Shown here: positions 11,462-19,174 of the stretch, piece after piece
Numbering within the stretch: position 1 is the stretch's first letter
Layout of the letters: every line of letters starts with the position of its first letter
Source: Verrucomicrobiales bacterium
Lineage (GTDB): Bacteria; Verrucomicrobiota; Verrucomicrobiia; Verrucomicrobiales; SLCJ01
DNA: 64,000 nt
Assembly (NCBI GenBank): GCA_046075565.1
Contig: JBJTQJ010000025.1
Location: 73,326-137,325 of the forward strand
Direction: 5' to 3'
Made by a program: the position numbers and the translations under genes
The notes under the pieces: generated by a model
Database searches by the model: none
What the model saw: only the letters and a program-made list of their open reading frames with translations
What the model was told of the DNA's origin: nothing

Positions 11462-12847
11462 TCAGAGACGCGCGAGCAGCTTGCCGTGGATACCACCGAA
11501 GCCGCCATTGCTGAGGACAAGCAAGACATCCCCATCGCGGGCAGCGGGCGCGACGCGCTCGACGATGGCATCAGCTCCACCCTCCAGCCAAGCCGGAATG
11601 CCGCGTATGGAAATCGATTCCACAAGGGCTCCGGGATCGAGGCGTTCGTCCTCCGGCACCTTGCCCGGATCCTCGACACGCGATATCACGGCGAGGTCTG
11701 CTCCTGCCACGGCATCGGCCAATTCGTTTTGGAAGACCTTGCGGCGGGTCGTGTTCGAACGCGGCTCGAAGATGGCCCACAACCGAGAACCAGGAAAACG
11801 CTGCCGCATGCTCGCGATGGACAGACGAATGGCGGTCGGATGATGGGCGAAATCATCGATCACCGAGACGCCATTTTTCACGCCGCGCAATTCCTGGCGT
11901 CGACCGACGCCATTGAATCCATCAAGAGCTTCTTGGATCTGCACATCGGTCAATCCCGCGTGCCTCGCGGCGGCGGCGGCCATGGCGGCATTCCGGATGT
12001 TGAATTCGCCATCCATGGGCACGGTGAAGACGGCTTCCCCGAGTCGGAAAGTTCCGCGTCCGGGCGCTGCTTCGTTCATGATGATGCGGTCGGTATTGTT
12101 TTCCCCGAAGCCGACCGATCGCACGGGAGCCGGGGACTGGGCCGTGACTTCGAGGCAGTTGGCGTCGTCGCCATTGATGATGACCAGTCCCCCGCGCGGA
12201 ACAACGCGCAGCAGACGCGAGAAGGTCAGTTTGACATCATCGATGGATTTATAAATATCGACGTGATCGAACTCGATGTTGTTCATCACGACCACTTCCG
12301 GCAGGTAGTGGAGGAACTTCGAGCGTTTGTCGAAGAACGCGGTGTCGTATTCATCGCCCTCGAGCACTGTCCATGGTGAGTCGGTGAAACGCGCGCCCAT
12401 GCCGAAGTTGCGCGGCATGCCACCGATGAGGAAACCCGGCTCACGCCCGGCATGCTCGAACATCCACGCCAGCATGCTCGTGGTCGTTGTCTTTCCGTGT
12501 GTGCCGCAGACCACGTAGTTGTGTTTGCCAATCAGGAAAAACCTCCGCAGCGCCTCCGGTAGCGATAGGTAGTCCATTTTCCGATCCAGCATGGCCTCGA
12601 CTTCCGGATTGCCGCGGCTGAGCGCGTTGCCAACCACCACCAGAGTGCCTTCGGGCGGAAGATTGGCCGGGTCATAGCCATCAAACAACCGGATGCCCGT
12701 GGTGCGCAGGAAATCCGACATGGGGGGATAACATTGGGCGTCGGACCCCGTGACTTGCCAGCCCCGGCGGGCCATGGCCGCCGCCACGGCCCCCATGGCC
12801 GTGCCGCAGACCCCGATAAAATGAATGGCGTTCGCGCCGTTTTGCAT
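11462..12847 (-). CDS. mpl: UDP-MurNAc:L-Ala-gamma-D-Glu-mDAP ligase Mpl
   Basis: GVCGTAMG, GTHGKTTT, EGDEYDTAFFDKRSKF, DDFAHHPTAI, EPRSNT, SNGGFGG. Confidence 0.95.
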   Translation of the reverse strand: MQNGANAIHFIGVCGTAMGAVAAAMARRGWQVTGSDAQCYPPMSDFLRTTGIRLFDGYDPANLPPEGTLVVVGNALSRGNPEVEAMLDRKMDYLSLPEALRRFFLIGKHNYVVCGTHGKTTTTSMLAWMFEHAGREPGFLIGGMPRNFGMGARFTDSPWTVLEGDEYDTAFFDKRSKFLHYLPEVVVMNNIEFDHVDIYKSIDDVKLTFSRLLRVVPRGGLVIINGDDANCLEVTAQSPAPVRSVGFGENNTDRIIMNEAAPGRGTFRLGEAVFTVPMDGEFNIRNAAMAAAAARHAGLTDVQIQEALDGFNGVGRRQELRGVKNGVSVIDDFAHHPTAIRLSIASMRQRFPGSRLWAIFEPRSNTTRRKVFQNELADAVAGADLAVISRVEDPGKVPEDERLDPGALVESISIRGIPAWLEGGADAIVERVAPAARDGDVLLVLSNGGFGGIHGKLLARL

Positions 12848-12999: not shown

Positions 13000-14052
13000 A
13001 TGGCCATCCACATCATCGTGCCACCCGAAAGCCGCGAACGCGCGGAGGAGCTGCGCGGCCGATTGCTGGCCGGTAGCACCATACCCGGCGCCCGGCTATC
13101 GGAGAAGCTAGGCACCGGGCCACCACCGGGCGACACCCCCGATTTCCTGCTCCGGCTGATCGCAACAAAAATGCCGAGGATCTTCGCGGAAAGTGAAATC
13201 AGCGGTGATGGCAGCGACTGGACACAGGAAGAGCTTCGTTTGTTAGGCGATGTTTCGGTGGCCGTAGATACGACCATCTTCGATGATGGCCGCCACCACT
13301 CGCCCCGTGTACATGAGAGGCGGTTCGGGGGCATGCTGGTTTTCACGCCGGGAGCGCTGTTGCGTGGCAATGGCATTTCACCACCTTGCGATCTCGCTGA
13401 AGTAACCGACTCCGCCGGGAACTTGGACGAGGATGCATTCACCGGCCTTTACCTCCGCCGCCTCAGCCCGGTTTTCGATTTCATTCATCATCGTGCTCTC
13501 GCTTTTGGCCAACGCGCTCTCGTTACCATGCCGGGACTTGGCTGCGGGCAATTTGCCGGGCGATTTGCCGGGAGGCTCGGGGCCATGCTTGGTCGCGCCC
13601 TTCACCACATCCTTTTGGTGAATGCAGCTAAATGGCCTGGCCTCGGCGCTGTTTATTACGATCCCTATTCCGAGGGGAAGAACGAACGTCATCGTATCGG
13701 AGAGACGGACTTTCTCATCCGCCCCTTGTGCCATGGAAACGAAGACAAGCCGCAGCTTTGTCCGCCGGAAAGTTATGCAGAAGCCGGAGATGATTTTTCC
13801 GGATTTCTTTTCCACGGCATCGTGGCATGGGACCATGTCTCCTGGCCCGGCAATGACTTCTGGGGAGGCGCTCGCGCGACGGATGACGGAGTCAAAGCCG
13901 CCGCGACCGATGTAATGAAATCCCTCACCGGAGTCGAAGGTTCCTACGATCCCGCGACCCATACCTACAAGCCACCGGGTCCTTGGCGAACCTGGGAAGA
14001 AGTCGCCAGTGCACACCACCCGGAATGGTGGCGAACGAATCTAAACCCCTAA
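13000..14052 (+). CDS. MavL-like macrodomain, putative ADP-ribosylhydrolase
   Basis: PGLGCGQFAG macro/PARG-type pyrophosphate loop; IFAES; AWDHVSWPGNDFWGGARATDDGVKAA matches the MavL catalytic loop as I recall it. Confidence 0.7.
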   Translation: MAIHIIVPPESRERAEELRGRLLAGSTIPGARLSEKLGTGPPPGDTPDFLLRLIATKMPRIFAESEISGDGSDWTQEELRLLGDVSVAVDTTIFDDGRHHSPRVHERRFGGMLVFTPGALLRGNGISPPCDLAEVTDSAGNLDEDAFTGLYLRRLSPVFDFIHHRALAFGQRALVTMPGLGCGQFAGRFAGRLGAMLGRALHHILLVNAAKWPGLGAVYYDPYSEGKNERHRIGETDFLIRPLCHGNEDKPQLCPPESYAEAGDDFSGFLFHGIVAWDHVSWPGNDFWGGARATDDGVKAAATDVMKSLTGVEGSYDPATHTYKPPGPWRTWEEVASAHHPEWWRTNLNP

Positions 14053-14088: not shown

Positions 14089-17000
14089 TTACTCGAAGCG
14101 GCAAATGGCCTCAATTCCGGCGGCCGAGCCGTCGCGTAACCAGCCATCGAGTTGCGATTGATCCTTGAGTTGCTGGCCACGCGGGCGGGGCACGGCGAGG
14201 AAGCGGACTGCGGCATCGGGCAAAGTGGTCATGTCGCCCCAAAGCTTCTCGAACTGCGCCACCGGCAGGATGTCTTCTTGTCCATTGCCCCAGCGTTTCT
14301 TCACATCCTTAAGGGTCACATAAGTCGGCATACGTGCGGCCAGGGCCCGCACCCCGGCGGTCACGGCGTCGGCATCACCGAGCGACGCTCGATCGAGTTC
14401 GAAGAGGGCGAGCATCCGGTCGATGTGGATCCAGTTGGTGGCAGAGTTATAAAAGGTGAGTTTGAATTCGTCGTCGTCGCGCGCCATGGCGAGTCCTTCG
14501 ACCAAACGCAATTGCCCGTTGATGCGGGCGAGACCGCCGCCCCGGTCTTCGATGCGTCGGCGGATCACTTCGACACTCAAGGCCGCGCCTTCGAGAATGT
14601 GGCGGCCGAAGACTGTCGGATCGAGGTTCGCGCCGAGCGTGTCGATGTTGTGCAATAACAAATGCTCGAGGCGCGGGTTTTCCTTCACCATCGCGGCGAG
14701 TGTGCCATTGAGCAGAAGATTGGCGATCTCATACCAATGCCCGACTGGGTGCAGGCATTGCAAGGGCACATTGTCGGTGTAATCGCTGGCTTCACCATTT
14801 TGAATCGCCCAGTCGATAAGCGCCTTTTGCAAGCTGCGCCGGTTTTTCTCCTTCTGCGGATCGAGCTGTTGGTGCGCGACTTCTTCAAAAGCAAAGCGCA
14901 GGTCACGCGCCGTCGGAACCATACGCAAGCCGATGGATCGCCCCGGCGAAAGGATAACCTGACCGCCGTAGCCGAACTGCTCGTGTGTATCAAGGAACTC
15001 GCGGGTCGGCCCCTGCGTGAGGAAACTCGTGGTGAACACATGCGCCGGCAGACAGCCGTATTCCATGCCGATAGCCCGGCTCTTTGCCAAATGGGTCTCG
15101 AGGAAACTGCGGTGGCGGCCGGACAACTTCGCGAATGGATGCAAGGCCTTGACCGTGCCCGCGCCCTGGGTCCAGCGGCTCCCGGCTCCGGCGGCGAGTG
15201 TCACGACGGCAATCCGGCCTTCCGACAAGGCTTGCTCGCCGATGCGTTTGGCTTCCTCATCGGCATGGTAAAGTGAAACCACATCTCCCTCGCGCGCATC
15301 TTCCACGGTCGTGGTGACCGGCAATCGATTCTGGGCCAAGCCGATGCGCCCGGACCGCAGATCCTCGCGGATGCGTTCGTGCTGCACGGCATCAAATCCC
15401 TGTGCGGCCAACAACTCGGCGAGGTTGCCCTGTGGTTCGCCGCCTTTGCGTTCGGCGGGCGGGAAAATCCGGTGGATCAACGGGCCAACCAACGGGCGTT
15501 CACCCGCCATGAGGCTGCGTTCGGCGAAAGCATCCATCTCCTGGCGCGTTGTCGCCTTGAGCGTGCGCGGATCCTGGCGAAGCCAACGCGGCACCATCAT
15601 CAGATAATACTCCGAAGACAACATGGCTTCACTGCCAGTTAGGAGAACGGAGGTCGATCCATTCTCATTGATGGTGAAATCATAGACCACAGGATCCATG
15701 GCGAAAGGCAATGCATTCTCCAGTTCACCTTTGCTGCGCCGCATGATTTCCAGAATGGCGGCGCGGGCCGATGCCTTTTGCGCGGGATCAACCCAGAAGC
15801 CCATGCCGCCGCCGGACATGCCCCCGAGCATGACGAAACCACGGAAGGCGTCGCCGAGCGCTTCCTTCGCGCGTGCGATGAGCCATTCGGTGTAAGCGTT
15901 GCTCGCCCACGGGATGATGGCTTGCAGCGGACCGAAGAAATTGCGGGTGGTGAGTTCGGCCACACGATCCACTTCACCTGCTTGCAAGGCATTGACGATC
16001 CCATGCAGGATTTGCTGCGCTTCCAATCGTGCCTCCCACTCCTTTTCCAGTTTGAGCAGGTATTTCTCCGTCACCATCTCGAGAATGGGGCCGACATTCT
16101 GCGACATCCCGCCGTGCACGAGGATCAAGCTGTCCTGCAATTGCTGGCGCGTTTCCGGAGAAATGCGATCCTGCCCAAACAAAGTATGGCGTGGCAACAA
16201 ACGGCCGCGGCTGATACCGCATTCGGTATCACCATCAACCGCCGCCTCGCCTTGGATCAACTTGATGCCCGGCCAGACCCCGCCGGAGTCCTGCCATCCG
16301 CCGCCAGAACCACCCAGCCATTCGCCAAGAATGGCGCGGCTCGCGATGGTGCGGCGTTCATCTTCGCTCAGTCCGCCGGTCAGGCTTTCCGTCTGCCCGC
16401 TTGCCCGCATACAGAGCGCGATGAGGCATCCTAACAAATTGGTCGACACCGCCAGGCGCGAACCCTTCGGGATATCGCGCACCTGGGAAACAATTTCCAG
16501 GCCCTTGCCGGGTCCGCAGAGCGCGGCCAGCACATCCGACAAGGCATGACCAGAGCCCTCCATGGCTGATGGGATGATGCCGGAGGCAATGACGGCCGCC
16601 TTGAGCAGCCCGAGGTAATCCTTGGCAAAGTCGAACAAATCATCCAGCGAATCGACATCGGCAATGGCCCCGAGATCGACGCTGGCCAACCGCAGCACTG
16701 GCTCATCGATCACGCGCAGGTAAGCACCGACCGGCGGCAAGGTCGAGGTATCGCGACCGTGCACACCGAGATCGACGGAGATATTGAGCACCTTGGCTCC
16801 CTCCGGATAATCCATGCCAAGGAAAAAGATATCCGACCAAGCGGCATGACTCAGGTCCATACGCACCGAGGTTTGCTCGCGCAGCACCGGATACACGCCG
16901 TGTGCGCCGCCGCTTTGCAAAAGCTCCGGGCGCAGGCGCAAGGGATAGTCGGAAGGATGCCCGGTGCGGAACATCCATTGGTTTCCCTTCACCTTGCGCA

Positions 17001-17406
17001 CGGTTTTCTGCACCTGCTGGGCGAGAGTCTTGAATGCCAATCCATGATAGGCGGAGGCCAGCGCGCTGCTGAGCGGGTCACTCGCTCCTTGGATGCGCTG
17101 GTGCTCCAGATAAACAGAAATGGCTTCCTCGAACCGCCGCGAGAGGCAAAGCTCGTGGCCTTCGTAAGGAATGGTCCCGGTGGTGTCGGCCGGATAATGA
17201 GGAGGCAAAAAATATCGATGGATCGCTTCGAGGAAAAAGATGGCGCGGACGCGATGATAGAAGTTTCCCGCTTCGAGGCGGAAAGACTCGAAGGCGTCGG
17301 CCATCGCCTCCAAACCGGATCGATCCGACGATCGACAGAGGGCTTCGAATGATATCCCGTCGGCGGCGTTTCCTTCCACCAGGGATTGCAGGCGTGGGTC
17401 CAACAT
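14089..17406 (-). CDS. Fused GHMP-family sugar kinase / UDP-sugar pyrophosphorylase-like protein
   Basis: Kinase half: VRMDL, PKGSRLAVS, GGGWQD, LGGMSGGG. Transferase half: TLAAGAGSRW, HPVGH, HNIDTLG, QFEK, QLKD. Confidence 0.8.
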   Translation of the reverse strand: MLDPRLQSLVEGNAADGISFEALCRSSDRSGLEAMADAFESFRLEAGNFYHRVRAIFFLEAIHRYFLPPHYPADTTGTIPYEGHELCLSRRFEEAISVYLEHQRIQGASDPLSSALASAYHGLAFKTLAQQVQKTVRKVKGNQWMFRTGHPSDYPLRLRPELLQSGGAHGVYPVLREQTSVRMDLSHAAWSDIFFLGMDYPEGAKVLNISVDLGVHGRDTSTLPPVGAYLRVIDEPVLRLASVDLGAIADVDSLDDLFDFAKDYLGLLKAAVIASGIIPSAMEGSGHALSDVLAALCGPGKGLEIVSQVRDIPKGSRLAVSTNLLGCLIALCMRASGQTESLTGGLSEDERRTIASRAILGEWLGGSGGGWQDSGGVWPGIKLIQGEAAVDGDTECGISRGRLLPRHTLFGQDRISPETRQQLQDSLILVHGGMSQNVGPILEMVTEKYLLKLEKEWEARLEAQQILHGIVNALQAGEVDRVAELTTRNFFGPLQAIIPWASNAYTEWLIARAKEALGDAFRGFVMLGGMSGGGMGFWVDPAQKASARAAILEIMRRSKGELENALPFAMDPVVYDFTINENGSTSVLLTGSEAMLSSEYYLMMVPRWLRQDPRTLKATTRQEMDAFAERSLMAGERPLVGPLIHRIFPPAERKGGEPQGNLAELLAAQGFDAVQHERIREDLRSGRIGLAQNRLPVTTTVEDAREGDVVSLYHADEEAKRIGEQALSEGRIAVVTLAAGAGSRWTQGAGTVKALHPFAKLSGRHRSFLETHLAKSRAIGMEYGCLPAHVFTTSFLTQGPTREFLDTHEQFGYGGQVILSPGRSIGLRMVPTARDLRFAFEEVAHQQLDPQKEKNRRSLQKALIDWAIQNGEASDYTDNVPLQCLHPVGHWYEIANLLLNGTLAAMVKENPRLEHLLLHNIDTLGANLDPTVFGRHILEGAALSVEVIRRRIEDRGGGLARINGQLRLVEGLAMARDDDEFKLTFYNSATNWIHIDRMLALFELDRASLGDADAVTAGVRALAARMPTYVTLKDVKKRWGNGQEDILPVAQFEKLWGDMTTLPDAAVRFLAVPRPRGQQLKDQSQLDGWLRDGSAAGIEAICRFE

Positions 17407-17420
17407 GATTCCGGAGTGGG

Positions 17421-18269
17421 TTAGCGGCGGGCGGCGTCGAGGGAAAGTTCTTCGGCGAGTATGGCGAGCAACTCGGCCCGCGCAGGGCCGGCCAAGCCCA
17501 GCGCCAATTGGGCGCGCAAGACCCCGAAGCGTGCCTCCAGGTCAGCCCGTCTTCCGCGCAATTCCGCCGCCAGGTATTTTTCCCGCGAGGCAAGGCGTGC
17601 GAGCGCCGGGGTGAGTCCGGCTTTTCCATCTTTGGCTCGCGCCGCTTCTTCTTCTAACAAGGTGAAGATGCTCGGTCCGAGCACGTGCATGCCGAAAAAG
17701 CAGAGGTAAAATCCGCTCCGCAATCCCGGGACGACACATGATTGTTCGGCCAGCGTCGGGGTCGGCTTCTCATAGACATTCTCCACCGTGTAGAGGCCGG
17801 ACCGACCGGGGCACAGCAATCCCGCCACCGTGCCATAGTAGCGCAACTGGCTCTCGTGCGTGGCTTGCACCGCCGAGACCGAACAATCCTGCTCGGCAGC
17901 GATCTCCAGCAACTGCCGGGTGCAACTCGCCTCGACTTCGCTCACATAAAGATGGTCGCTCACTTGCAGCAGGAAAGGTTTGCCGGCGGTGAAATCCTTG
18001 CCGCAAAGCACCGCCTGGCCATAGCCGGAAGGTTTCGCCTGCTCGATGAGGGTGACTTTTCCCCCGAATCCGGAGAGAAGCTGCTCGTAGGCGGCCCGCT
18101 CCGATGGCTTCACCACCACCCCGGCTTTTTCAATCCCGGCCGAGAACAGTTCCTCCAACTGGATGACCATGGCCGCCTTCCAATCGCCCTGGCGATCATT
18201 CAGGTTCTGCATGGGCAGGCGGCGGGAATCCGGACCGGCGGCGGTGATAAGGGCATGTTTAGCTTTCAT
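17421..18269 (-). CDS. GalU-like sugar-phosphate nucleotidyltransferase (degenerate N-terminal motif)
   Basis: TAAGPDSRRLP, EQ..P.GYGQAV, PFLLQVSDH, YEKP. Confidence 0.8.
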   Translation of the reverse strand: MKAKHALITAAGPDSRRLPMQNLNDRQGDWKAAMVIQLEELFSAGIEKAGVVVKPSERAAYEQLLSGFGGKVTLIEQAKPSGYGQAVLCGKDFTAGKPFLLQVSDHLYVSEVEASCTRQLLEIAAEQDCSVSAVQATHESQLRYYGTVAGLLCPGRSGLYTVENVYEKPTPTLAEQSCVVPGLRSGFYLCFFGMHVLGPSIFTLLEEEAARAKDGKAGLTPALARLASREKYLAAELRGRRADLEARFGVLRAQLALGLAGPARAELLAILAEELSLDAARR

Positions 18270-18371: not shown

Positions 18372-18851
18372 TCACATCTTGGCTGCCACCGCCCGGCCAA
18401 TCTCCATCAGTCGCGCCTTTTCTTCGTCCGAGAAATCATGGGGCACCATCAGGCCCACGCCAAGCGTGCCCCGTAAGCTGCCGGTGTGCAGACAAGGCAC
18501 GGCCAGCGAGCCTTGCACGTTGGTCGCCCGCGCTCCGGGCTTCGCCACCCCTCCGAGGTCCGCCTGCAAATTGCACAATTCCACCGGCTCCCGGCGTTCG
18601 GCTGCCGCGCCCGCGATGCCCTTGCCTATCGGGATTTTTTCAATGACCGGCATCAATTGCGGCGGAATACCGCGCTGCGCGACCAGTGCCAGCAAATTCG
18701 TCTCCTCATCGAGCCGATGCAGCGTCCCGGTTGTCCCATTGAAGGAGGCGATGGTGGCATCAAGCACTTCCTGCCAATCGATGATGGGTGAGGATAAGAA
18801 ATCGTTAATCTTGGAATCCATGGTGATTGTGTCGGCAATGTATGTTCTCAC
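18372..18851 (-). CDS. Stand-alone GAF domain protein
   Basis: IPIGKGIAGAAAE..EPV and SLAVP....GTLGV GAF signatures; start may be ATG 18821. Confidence 0.85.
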   Translation of the reverse strand: MRTYIADTITMDSKINDFLSSPIIDWQEVLDATIASFNGTTGTLHRLDEETNLLALVAQRGIPPQLMPVIEKIPIGKGIAGAAAERREPVELCNLQADLGGVAKPGARATNVQGSLAVPCLHTGSLRGTLGVGLMVPHDFSDEEKARLMEIGRAVAAKM

Positions 18852-19174
18852 CTTTCCTCCATCTCGCGCAGTTTGTCGCCGATTTCGCGCAGATAGCCGT
18901 AGGAATAGATGCCGGTCCGGTGGCCGTCGGAAAAAGCGATGGCAAGAGCATATCCACCAACCGTCTGCCAGGAAATGACGCGCACTCCGGAGTGGTCGCG
19001 CTTTTCCTCGCCCCCGTATTGTTTTCCTAACAAATCACGTTCACCCATGGTTTCCGCGCTAGGCGACCACGCCCGCAGGCGGTCCATGGGATAAATGTCT
19101 TCCCTTCCATCGGACCAGCGGATGGCGAGAAAGTCGCCGATGGCCTGCACGTCGTCGGGGAGAGGAACTGACAT
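18848..19174 (-). CDS. DUF971 (GBBH N-terminal-like) protein
   Basis: I.WSDG, LRA.SPSAE, VGGYAL.I.FSDGH.TGIYS. Confidence 0.9.
   Translation of the reverse strand: MSVPLPDDVQAIGDFLAIRWSDGREDIYPMDRLRAWSPSAETMGERDLLGKQYGGEEKRDHSGVRVISWQTVGGYALAIAFSDGHRTGIYSYGYLREIGDKLREMEER

Follow-up and report, generated by a model that had tools for sequence, protein, structure and literature searches.

What does a bacterial protein do in which a fucokinase-like sugar kinase is followed by a domain resembling the UDP-glucose pyrophosphorylases of eukaryotes? This question is raised by a gene on contig JBJTQJ010000025.1 of a Verrucomicrobiales bacterium, located in a stretch of 64,000 nucleotides (nt) that was analysed as a whole and is referred to here as the window. 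Our structural and comparative analyses confirm that both domains are fused in one protein. From sequence and modelled structures, we further propose, at a probability of roughly 55%, that the protein is an anomeric kinase and uridylyltransferase that turns a sugar or sugar phosphate into a UDP-sugar, helped by a GalF-like partner. The features concerned are listed below by window position, strand and evidence.

14089–17406, reverse strand: fusion gene P0001, 1105 amino acids (aa), reading frame uninterrupted (list of open reading frames, ORFs, and translation)
16897–17406, reverse strand: helical N-terminal domain, about residues 1–170, equivalent to the helical linker before the fucokinase domain in FKP (DSSP and superposition)
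15634–16896, reverse strand: GHMP sugar-kinase-like domain, about residues 171–591 (VIA-align, NCBIfam FKP, conserved residues)
16441–16470, reverse strand: PKGSRLAVST, a divergent GHMP motif II (phosphate-binding loop), residues 313–322 (translation)
16288–16305, reverse strand: GGGWQD, residues 368–373 (translation)
15445–15633, reverse strand: interdomain linker, about residues 592–654, partly helical (per-residue confidence of the AlphaFold2 model and DSSP)
14092–15444, reverse strand: UDPGP-type nucleotidyltransferase domain, about residues 655–1105, catalytic core only (VIA-align, Pfam, profile)
15148–15198, reverse strand: nucleotide-binding loop LAAGAGSRWTQGAGTVK, residues 737–753, of which LAAGAGSR is 737–744 (translation)
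17421–18269, reverse strand: partner gene P0273, 282 aa, GalU/YngB fold without the GXG(T/S)R loop (profile, AlphaFold2, VIA-align)

The AlphaFold2 (AF2) model of the fusion protein, built on an alignment of 50 family members, had a mean predicted local distance difference test score (pLDDT) of 90.9 and a predicted template modelling score of 0.89; the sole stretch with a confidence below 50 was residues 653–658, in the linker region. Models were compared with solved structures by Foldseek and then by VIA-align, which gives Z and the root mean square deviation (rmsd). Residues 1–589 of the model superposed on positions 486–949 of full-length FKP (9iit_A; Z 33.5, 453 residues aligned). This superposition equates the helical N-terminal domain, whose helices span residues 4–147 according to DSSP, with the helical linker found before the kinase of FKP. 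The initial annotation, made from the sequence alone, had described a helical N-terminus, a fucokinase-like GHMP domain and a eukaryote-type UDPGP domain, in the reverse of the FKP order. Parsing the AF2 model into domains, as it had suggested, yielded exactly this arrangement, with the kinase first and the transferase C-terminal. All motifs that it had named are present in the translation, among them GGMSGGG (residues 528–534), HPVGHW (886–891), HNIDTLGA (919–926), QFE (1051–1053) and LKD (1080–1082).

The middle domain is a GHMP kinase by fold. Residues 178–557 matched the kinase half of the NCBIfam FKP model with an E value of 1.1e-22, although as an FKP equivalog (NF009948) the protein scored 79.6 bits against a cut-off of 721 and covered profile positions 613–950 only, which is the kinase part. 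The same stretch matched Bacteroides fragilis FKP in the Protein Data Bank (PDB; 9iip, E 3.8e-11), as did a profile of the 50 family members (9iip, E 1.1e-18). Superposition of residues 171–591 (approximate limits) on the kinase part of 9iip aligned 354 of 361 residues with Z 36.9 and an rmsd of 2.8. The heptose-7-phosphate kinase WcbL (4usm) was nearly as close at Z 36.2, followed by the HddA-like structure 3k85 and galactokinase 1s4e, both at Z 29.7. These values place the two-lobed domain in the GHMP superfamily and reject a middle region devoid of that fold. Individual residues were mapped by HMMER alignment to FKP (5yys) and their conservation was counted in the 50-member alignment, which is the source of all such counts for the fusion protein; the roles are those given in PMC11982464.

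FKP Arg592, stabilises the leaving group: R182, 50/50
FKP Trp599, sugar stacking: W190, 46/50
FKP Asp601, binding of O3 and O4: D192, 50/50
FKP Ser719, metal ligand: S321, 50/50
FKP Glu751, inactive as E751A: E362, 50/50
FKP Gln761, sugar binding: Q372, 50/50
FKP Asp762, proposed general base: D373, 50/50

Both the catalytic Arg (R182) and the general-base Asp (D373) of sugar-1-kinases are thus kept in every member. The loop is another matter: residues 313–322 (PKGSRLAVST) align to FKP 711–720 (PAGSGLGTSS), so that the canonical motif II PxGSGLG(S/T)S is absent while its P, G, S and L and the metal-binding Ser are retained, with A319, V320 and S321 each found in 50/50. The conserved kinase residues thus suggest an intact sugar site and catalytic machinery, in contrast to an altered triphosphate clamp; to judge from the alignment, the alteration extends to the whole family and goes further in the clade with Arg in the loop.

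The C-terminal domain was recognized as well; like that of the kinase domain, its resemblance to known proteins lies well beyond chance. Pfam UDPGP (PF01704) matched residues 886–998 with 28.5 bits, above its gathering cut-off of 22, and yeast Ugp1 was matched by sequence with an E value of 3.3e-7. With the profile of the 50 members, the PDB matches were a UDP-glucose pyrophosphorylase (UGP; 8c0b, E 7.6e-24) and, over residues 690–821, UAP (8yp3, E 3e-9). Structurally, residues 655–1105 (approximate limits) aligned to yeast Ugp1 (2i5k, chain 46–407) over 346 residues with Z 33.6 and an rmsd of 3.1, ahead of UAP1 (9g53, Z 31.6) and of the fungal and human UDP-GlcNAc pyrophosphorylases at about 31; no USP structure was among the best 50 rows of this comparison. 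The fusion protein ends where the Ugp1 alignment stops, at chain position 407, and has no counterpart of the eukaryotic C-terminal beta-helix, through which, according to PMC10470519, eukaryotic UGPs oligomerise (residues 405–514 in Aspergillus nidulans UGP). The same article provided the roles for the following residues, mapped through a hidden Markov model (HMM) alignment to A. nidulans UGP (8c0b).

UGP Leu121: L737, 47/50
UGP Gly124: G740, 49/50
UGP Lys135, essential and phosphate-binding: K753, 48/50
UGP Gly227 and His228, the latter the phosphate-binding His: G889 and H890, 50/50
UGP Asn256, glucose pocket: N920, 47/50
UGP Asp258, Mg-binding: D922, 49/50
UGP Glu307, glucose pocket: E970, 48/50
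UGP Asn329, glucose pocket: N987, 47/50
UGP Asn331, glucose-binding: position 989, with M in 21, L in 14, N in 6, A in 5 and other residues in 4 of 50

This domain looks like an active uridylyltransferase with a sugar pocket that would be near, but not identical, to that of UGP. The nucleotide is probably UTP, as suggested by the UGP-like loop, and not GTP as in FKP.

The initial annotation had called the protein a single-chain enzyme. This stands as far as both domains share one polypeptide, but it overlooked the partner gene P0273, whose stop codon lies 14 nt before the ATG of the fusion gene. Among the best 80 related loci from species-representative genomes, a homologue of P0273 was found directly upstream and on the same strand in 78; the two without it were L039, with just 730 nt of upstream DNA, and L046. 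The spacing was mostly below 20 nt, with several overlaps of 1 or 4 nt. P0273 scored 69.8 bits against the GalU model TIGR01099 (cut-off 326.8), and its family profile matched Bacillus subtilis YngB (7o2n) from end to end with an E value of 1.3e-35. Its AF2 model (pLDDT 93.9) has the GalU fold (5j49, Z 31.6 over 258 residues) and is more distantly similar to GMPPA/GMPPB (7d72, Z 24.2).

The active site of the partner departs from that of GalU in a consistent way. In the 40 partner sequences compared, a complete GXG(T/S)R motif never occurred: the first Gly was present in 24/40 and the second in 6/40, the Thr/Ser position was Gln in 35/40, and Arg was found in 22/40. The Lys of LPxTK was likewise found in 0/40. 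Q77, G82, D105-H106, E167-K168-P169 and R241, were present in 40/40 each. According to PMC4643126, replacing the loop Thr-Arg of Escherichia coli GalU cuts its activity about 500-fold, and the low activity of GalF is explained by this Thr-Arg being naturally absent. In the partner, the (T/S)R of GXG(T/S)R is similarly lost, yet the EKP that binds the sugar phosphate and the Asp that binds Mg are retained. Lacking the loop that clamps the nucleoside triphosphate (NTP), it is therefore read as a GalF- or GMPPA-like accessory. It is most likely a regulatory subunit that is non-catalytic or weakly catalytic, and the conserved residues suggest that it retains binding of a sugar phosphate or UDP-sugar.

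Relatives of the fusion protein are numerous, and their names conceal the kinase, as the initial annotation had anticipated: the listed matches were called either 'UTP--glucose-1-phosphate uridylyltransferase', which was the only specific name among them, or 'hypothetical protein'. At least 8000 clusters at 90% identity were matched. An exhaustive search of representatives returned 2564 clusters at an E value of 0.001 and 530 at 1e-30; many were fragments. In species-representative genomes, a relative is encoded by 583 of 600 candidate stretches. Judged by record titles, the carriers include Opitutaceae, Akkermansiaceae or Verrucomicrobiaceae, Chthoniobacterales and Limisphaerales in the Verrucomicrobiota; Pirellulaceae, Planctomycetaceae and Tepidisphaerales or Phycisphaerales in the Planctomycetota; and a few metagenome-assembled genomes (MAGs) of Chloroflexota and Rhodothermales. 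Identity to the window protein was about 55–75% across the two phyla, an unusually high conservation. Among sampled genomes of at least 90% completeness, the family was present in 14 of 201 Verrucomicrobiota (13 of 104 genera) and in 12 of 201 Planctomycetota, the phylum of a Stieleria genome. It is therefore patchy and not universal.

In a FastTree phylogeny of 83 sequences, from which rows shorter than 950 aa were left out, clustering was mostly by phylum, with three changes needed for Verrucomicrobiota and two for Planctomycetota. Phycisphaerae, three Chloroflexota and one Rhodothermota MAG were nested among Verrucomicrobiota. No donor or direction of transfer was read from the tree. A homologue was also seen in a eukaryote, the oxymonad Blattamonas nauphoetae (P0149, 1292 aa, 'putative UTP--glucose-1-phosphate uridylyltransferase'); in the GHMP part it shares 45% identity with the window protein, and it may have been acquired by gene transfer.

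The phosphate loop and the partner gene divide the family further. We surveyed 89 additional loci, 10 from genomes and 79 from metagenomes, which fell into four loop types.

GSRLAVS: 73 loci, partner upstream in 65
GSRFAVS: 3 loci, partner upstream in 3
GSRMAVS ('PVC group'): 5 loci, adjacent partner in 0
GSGLAVS: 8 loci, partner upstream in 0

The partner was thus upstream in 68/76 loci of the first two types, and six of the eight partner-less GSRLAVS loci had less than 450 nt of upstream DNA. A strict coupling between Arg in the loop and the partner was rejected, as the five 'PVC group' loci carry GSRMAVST without an adjacent partner. Because both GSRMAVS and GSGLAVS loci do without it, the kinase-UDPGP core appears to be the older, self-sufficient unit, to which the partner would have been added later in the clade of the window protein. 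In three PVC-group MAGs of the GSRMAVST type (L093, L095 and L096), genes for isocitrate/isopropylmalate dehydrogenase and malic enzyme follow the fusion gene, together with HMGL-like + dCache in L093 and L095 only and a fumarase gene in L095 only. This neighbourhood recurs among those close relatives, and we could make out no relation to sugar activation.

The eight GSGLAVS-type loci keep different company. Four have an upstream gene for a 391–426-aa protein with a GmhA-like SIS domain, which is nearest in the PDB to phosphoheptose isomerase 1tk9 (E 9.7e-8) and scores 40.7–58.3 bits with the gmhA model, under its cut-off. Downstream of three lies a gene for a glycosyltransferase of family 2 of about 820 aa with weak likeness to the cellulose synthase CelA. 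Single loci adjoin a cellulase of glycoside hydrolase family 5, a HAD protein of the beta-phosphoglucomutase family (153.1 bits, cut-off 153.35) and a ROK glucokinase-family protein. Fusions extend this picture. In the metagenomic locus L097, one open frame crosses the whole 18,457 nt and runs off both ends; the predicted protein of more than 6,150 aa contains a ROK domain, two tandem GSGLAVST-type kinase-UDPGP cores and a second ROK domain. The giant protein P0141 (2318 aa) joins a ROK domain, a core and an inositol-monophosphatase (Inositol_P) domain, and in P0154/P0272 a core is followed by ROK. The reverse order occurs in P0252 (1246 aa; source name 'Candidatus Kaelpia imicola', an Omnitrophota MAG), where UDPGP (125–481) precedes GHMP (732–1212). 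Two proteins that seemed to carry partner and core in one chain, P0180 and P0213, gave patchy matches only; they were treated as poor gene calls and not used. The kinase and UDPGP domains would hence form a functional unit, kept together in both orders across very distant relatives. The metabolic company of the latter suggests that a glycan synthase is supplied through the chemistry of hexose or heptose phosphates, and the ROK, SIS and phosphatase or mutase neighbours point as readily to a sugar phosphate as to a free sugar as the substrate.

We propose the following mechanism. The GHMP domain would use ATP to phosphorylate a sugar or sugar phosphate at its anomeric hydroxyl, and the UDPGP domain would convert the sugar-1-phosphate and UTP to a UDP-sugar, most likely a UDP-linked gluco- or galacto-type hexose. 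In the clade of the window protein, the enzyme would work with the GalU-fold protein encoded directly upstream, which would act as an accessory, regulatory subunit in the manner of GalF or GMPPA. What was observed are the folds, the catalytic residues conserved among members, the pairing of the two genes, and the surroundings and fusions of relatives; from these we infer that the protein has both activities, which nucleotide and sugar it uses, and what the partner does.

Several observations weigh against this proposal. In the kinase loop, FKP Gly715 is replaced by R317 in 47/50 members, with Gly in the 3 most distant ones, and FKP Gly717 by A319 in 50/50, members with the Gly-type loop included; the backbone NH of Gly717 binds phosphate in FKP, as stated in PMC11982464. 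Pfam GHMP_kinases_N left the fusion protein unmatched even at an E value of 0.1. These replacements leave room for a kinase domain that is altered or merely binds a ligand. In the transferase domain, one of the three glucose-binding Asn of UGP (Asn331) is not retained at position 989, and the second essential Lys (Lys403) and the uridine-binding Gln198, both described in PMC10470519, fall outside the HMM alignment; K1081, present in 50/50 within VPRxRGQQLK, is a candidate equivalent of Lys403 by position only. Binding between the proteins received weak support. A complex prediction of the partner with fusion residues 1–715 gave an ipSAE of 0.32 (runs 0.32, 0.04 and 0.67; best of three controls 0.00), with agreement between runs in at least 4% of contacts and a partner pLDDT of at least 85. 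In calibration the mark was reached by 116/157 solved complexes and 2/215 mismatched pairs, and at values up to 0.60 by only 18/157 solved complexes and both mismatches. Moreover, the partner profile found no match at an E value of 1e-5 in four genomes of the GSRMAVS clade and one Omnitrophota genome, whose completeness was not given; from these five genomes of partner-less clades, the partner would not be needed for the core chemistry. The 80 loci of the window's clade also showed no conserved glycosyltransferase or transporter neighbour.

The genome of the window (3.9 Mb, 100% complete) adds to these objections. It encodes an ordinary UDPGP-type UTP--glucose-1-phosphate uridylyltransferase (UGPase), apparently of the eukaryote-type family, outside the window at G000:C52:64609-65709, in a frame of about 482 aa scoring 370.7 bits, compared with 26 bits for the UDPGP domain of the fusion protein in the same search. 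In addition, there are two phosphoglucomutase (PGM)-family genes (PGM_PMM_I) and heptose genes of its own, GmhA-like (183.7 bits) and RfaE-domain-I-like (246.2 bits). No pathway gap in this genome therefore calls for the fusion protein. For the same reasons we rejected three more specific roles: the sole UGPase, given the separate canonical UDPGP gene; a forced bypass of PGM, given the two PGM_PMM_I genes; and an enzyme of lipopolysaccharide heptose, given the GmhA-like and RfaE-domain-I-like genes and five GT9 (heptosyltransferase) matches. The genome also has five ROK genes, and no GalU above its cut-off was found in it, the best match being the partner itself at 67 bits. A control search for UDPGP gave matches in 0/14 well-known prokaryote genomes. 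The module is best seen as a putative additional, dedicated route.

The alternative that survives best, although we consider it unlikely, is that the Arg-loop GHMP domain is a sensor that binds a sugar with or without ATP and switches the UDPGP domain, which would act as a pyrophosphorylase on preformed sugar-1-phosphate. A change in this same loop turned Gal3p, a paralogue of galactokinase, into a ligand sensor. The replacement of GSGLG(S/T)SS by GSRLAVST speaks for such a switch, as does the behaviour of Pfam GHMP_kinases_N, which matches the GSGLAVST-type relative P0151 (E 3e-6) and misses the fusion protein. Layered regulation is also suggested by the recruitment, in this clade, of another protein of nucleotidyltransferase fold that is apparently non-catalytic. 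Yet all 50 members, of the Arg and Gly types alike, have the metal-binding Ser along with the three catalytic residues Arg, Glu and Asp, Ala at the second Gly position is common to all of them, and the Arg loop occurs in the partner-less clade as well (GSRMAVST).

Lower in our ranking, and doubtful for the window's clade, is a route in which ROK or SIS proteins supply an aldose-6(7)-phosphate, the GHMP domain converts it to the 1,6(7)-bisphosphate, a phosphatase or mutase trims this product, and the UDPGP domain forms the UDP-sugar. Such a route would be an analogue of the HldE/HddA pathway to nucleoside diphosphate (NDP)-heptose, independent of phosphomutase and not a salvage; it refines the proposed anomeric kinase-uridylyltransferase and does not contradict it. 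The proximity of the kinase fold to WcbL and 3k85 as much as to fucokinase favours it, together with the relatives fused to ROK and Inositol_P domains, the GmhA-like SIS neighbours and the relative beside a beta-phosphoglucomutase-family HAD gene; R317 in the phosphate loop could bind the extra phosphate. These contexts, however, belong to the eight distant GSGLAVST-type loci and to three giant proteins, whereas no ROK, SIS or phosphatase gene is a conserved neighbour in the window's clade, and the genome of the window has the GmhA-like and RfaE-domain-I-like genes mentioned above. Furthermore, W190, whose equivalent stacks on C4–C6 of fucose in FKP (PMC11982464), is kept in the window's clade and not in the distant one.

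A combination of these ideas is more speculative again. The fusion protein would be a second, independently evolved HldE-like machine acting on a sugar 6(7)-phosphate made by ROK or GmhA-like proteins, phosphorylating C1 and delivering the UDP-sugar without any phosphomutase. The loop Arg would read the extra phosphate, and the partner, having lost its NTP clamp and kept its UDP-sugar pocket, would sense the product and exert feedback on the enzyme. If true, the HldE-like core and its sensor would together supply a dedicated pool of UDP-sugar through a route that is self-contained and regulates itself. Finally, a plain large UGPase with structural extra domains, as implied by the database names and by the retention of the UGP catalytic and most glucose-binding residues, is very improbable, since the genome has its separate, far better matching UDPGP enzyme, some 650 conserved kinase-like residues with invariant catalytic positions are unlikely to be a mere scaffold, and a housekeeping UGPase would not be expected to show the patchy distribution seen here (14/201 and 12/201 genomes).

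The proposed kinase-uridylyltransferase can be compared with several known systems. Plant FKGP is a bifunctional kinase/pyrophosphorylase with a transferase of different fold at its N-terminus. HldE (RfaE) has the kinase before the nucleotidyltransferase in one protein, built from ribokinase and cytidylyltransferase folds; by analogy, the kinase-then-transferase order of the fusion protein is not unique in its logic. In the HddA/GmhB/HddC pathway to NDP-heptose, the GHMP heptokinases (WcbL, 3k85) are as close in fold to the fusion protein as fucokinase is, and distant relatives of the fusion gene lie beside GmhA-like SIS and HAD genes. GMPPA, the paralogue of GMPPB, and the large subunit of plant ADP-glucose pyrophosphorylase are low-activity regulators of nucleotidyltransferase fold. 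In contrast to these two and to GalF, the paralogue of GalU, the partner accompanies a catalytic protein of a different fold and not a paralogue. A K44R result for the large subunit of ADP-glucose pyrophosphorylase is quoted in PMC4643126.

FKP (5yys, 9iit, 9iip) likewise joins a GHMP anomeric sugar kinase to a sugar-1-phosphate nucleotidyltransferase. Its kinase domain and preceding linker superpose on those of the fusion protein, in which the catalytic (Arg, Glu, Asp) and sugar-contacting (Trp, Asp, Gln) residues described in PMC11982464 are also kept. The partner, a nucleotidyltransferase fold encoded just before the linker and kinase, even mimics the order of FKP at the operon level. The transferase of FKP, however, is N-terminal and carries a beta-helix, whereas that of the fusion protein is C-terminal and of the UDPGP fold, and the Gly-rich kinase loop of the fusion protein reads GSRLAVST. 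Zebrafish DrGKUP, a glucuronokinase/UDP-glucuronate pyrophosphorylase, also has a GHMP kinase and a pyrophosphorylase in one polypeptide, but with an N-terminal, bacterial-type nucleotidyltransferase of about 260 aa and a C-terminal kinase, according to PMC3938481; the fusion protein has the opposite order and another transferase family. Like plant FKGP, both thus have an N-terminal transferase that differs in fold from that of the fusion protein. With the eukaryote-type UGP, UAP1, AGX and USP enzymes (PF01704), the fused transferase shares the fold, the nucleotide-binding loop, the His, the Asp, two of the three sugar-binding Asn and the Glu, and it differs from them in the missing beta-helix oligomerisation domain, the variable Asn331 equivalent and the weak Pfam score.

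No paper on the fusion of GHMP and UDPGP domains or on the fusion-partner pair was found in the full-text literature, subscription journals being outside its coverage. The family is large, mis-named in databases and, as far as the literature searched can tell, unstudied. Chemoenzymatic glycan synthesis relies heavily on bifunctional kinase/pyrophosphorylases such as FKP, which in cells define the recycling and commitment of sugars. If active, the fusion protein would offer a one- or two-protein route from sugar to UDP-sugar through a fold combination that is new for this task, and possibly a new case in which a catalytic fold is regulated by an unrelated pseudo-nucleotidyltransferase. Knowing which sugar is used would also set right how thousands of genes are annotated in Verrucomicrobiota and Planctomycetota from soil, freshwater and the sea.

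The wider surroundings of the two genes are not conserved. When the ORFs of the 80 loci were clustered, no further gene beyond the pair proved to be conserved; a cluster of 22 loci was rejected as a neighbour because it consisted of antisense shadow ORFs, and the next real cluster comprised 7 loci of close relatives. Each of the other genes beside the module in the window (GAF, DUF971-like or GBBH-like_N, HemB-like, MavL-like and a 461-aa ORF at 11462–12847) was conserved in 0/80 loci. Neither the fusion protein nor the partner matched a defence system in PADLOC, and a promoter/terminator scan gave counts not above those of shuffled sequences (2 against a mean of 1.3; 9 against 5.4, standard deviation 2.3). 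A search of the named clusters of the ESM Atlas with residues 1–620 returned the family's own names only.

Upstream of the pair, on the reverse strand, lie a GAF-domain gene (18372–18851, 159 aa, GAF_2, E 2.4e-10) and a GBBH-like_N/DUF971-type gene (18848–19174, 108 aa, E 1.9e-17), which overlap by 4 nt. On the other side, a 350-aa ORF on the forward strand (13000–14052) converges with the fusion gene. It matched Pfam PF24754, 'Macrodomain effector MavL', with an E value of 1.6e-113 and nearly from end to end (protein residues 5–327, profile positions 3–323 of 325), and had no match in NCBIfam or PADLOC. The family is named for a Legionella effector, and its presence in an Opitutaceae-like genome is unexpected.

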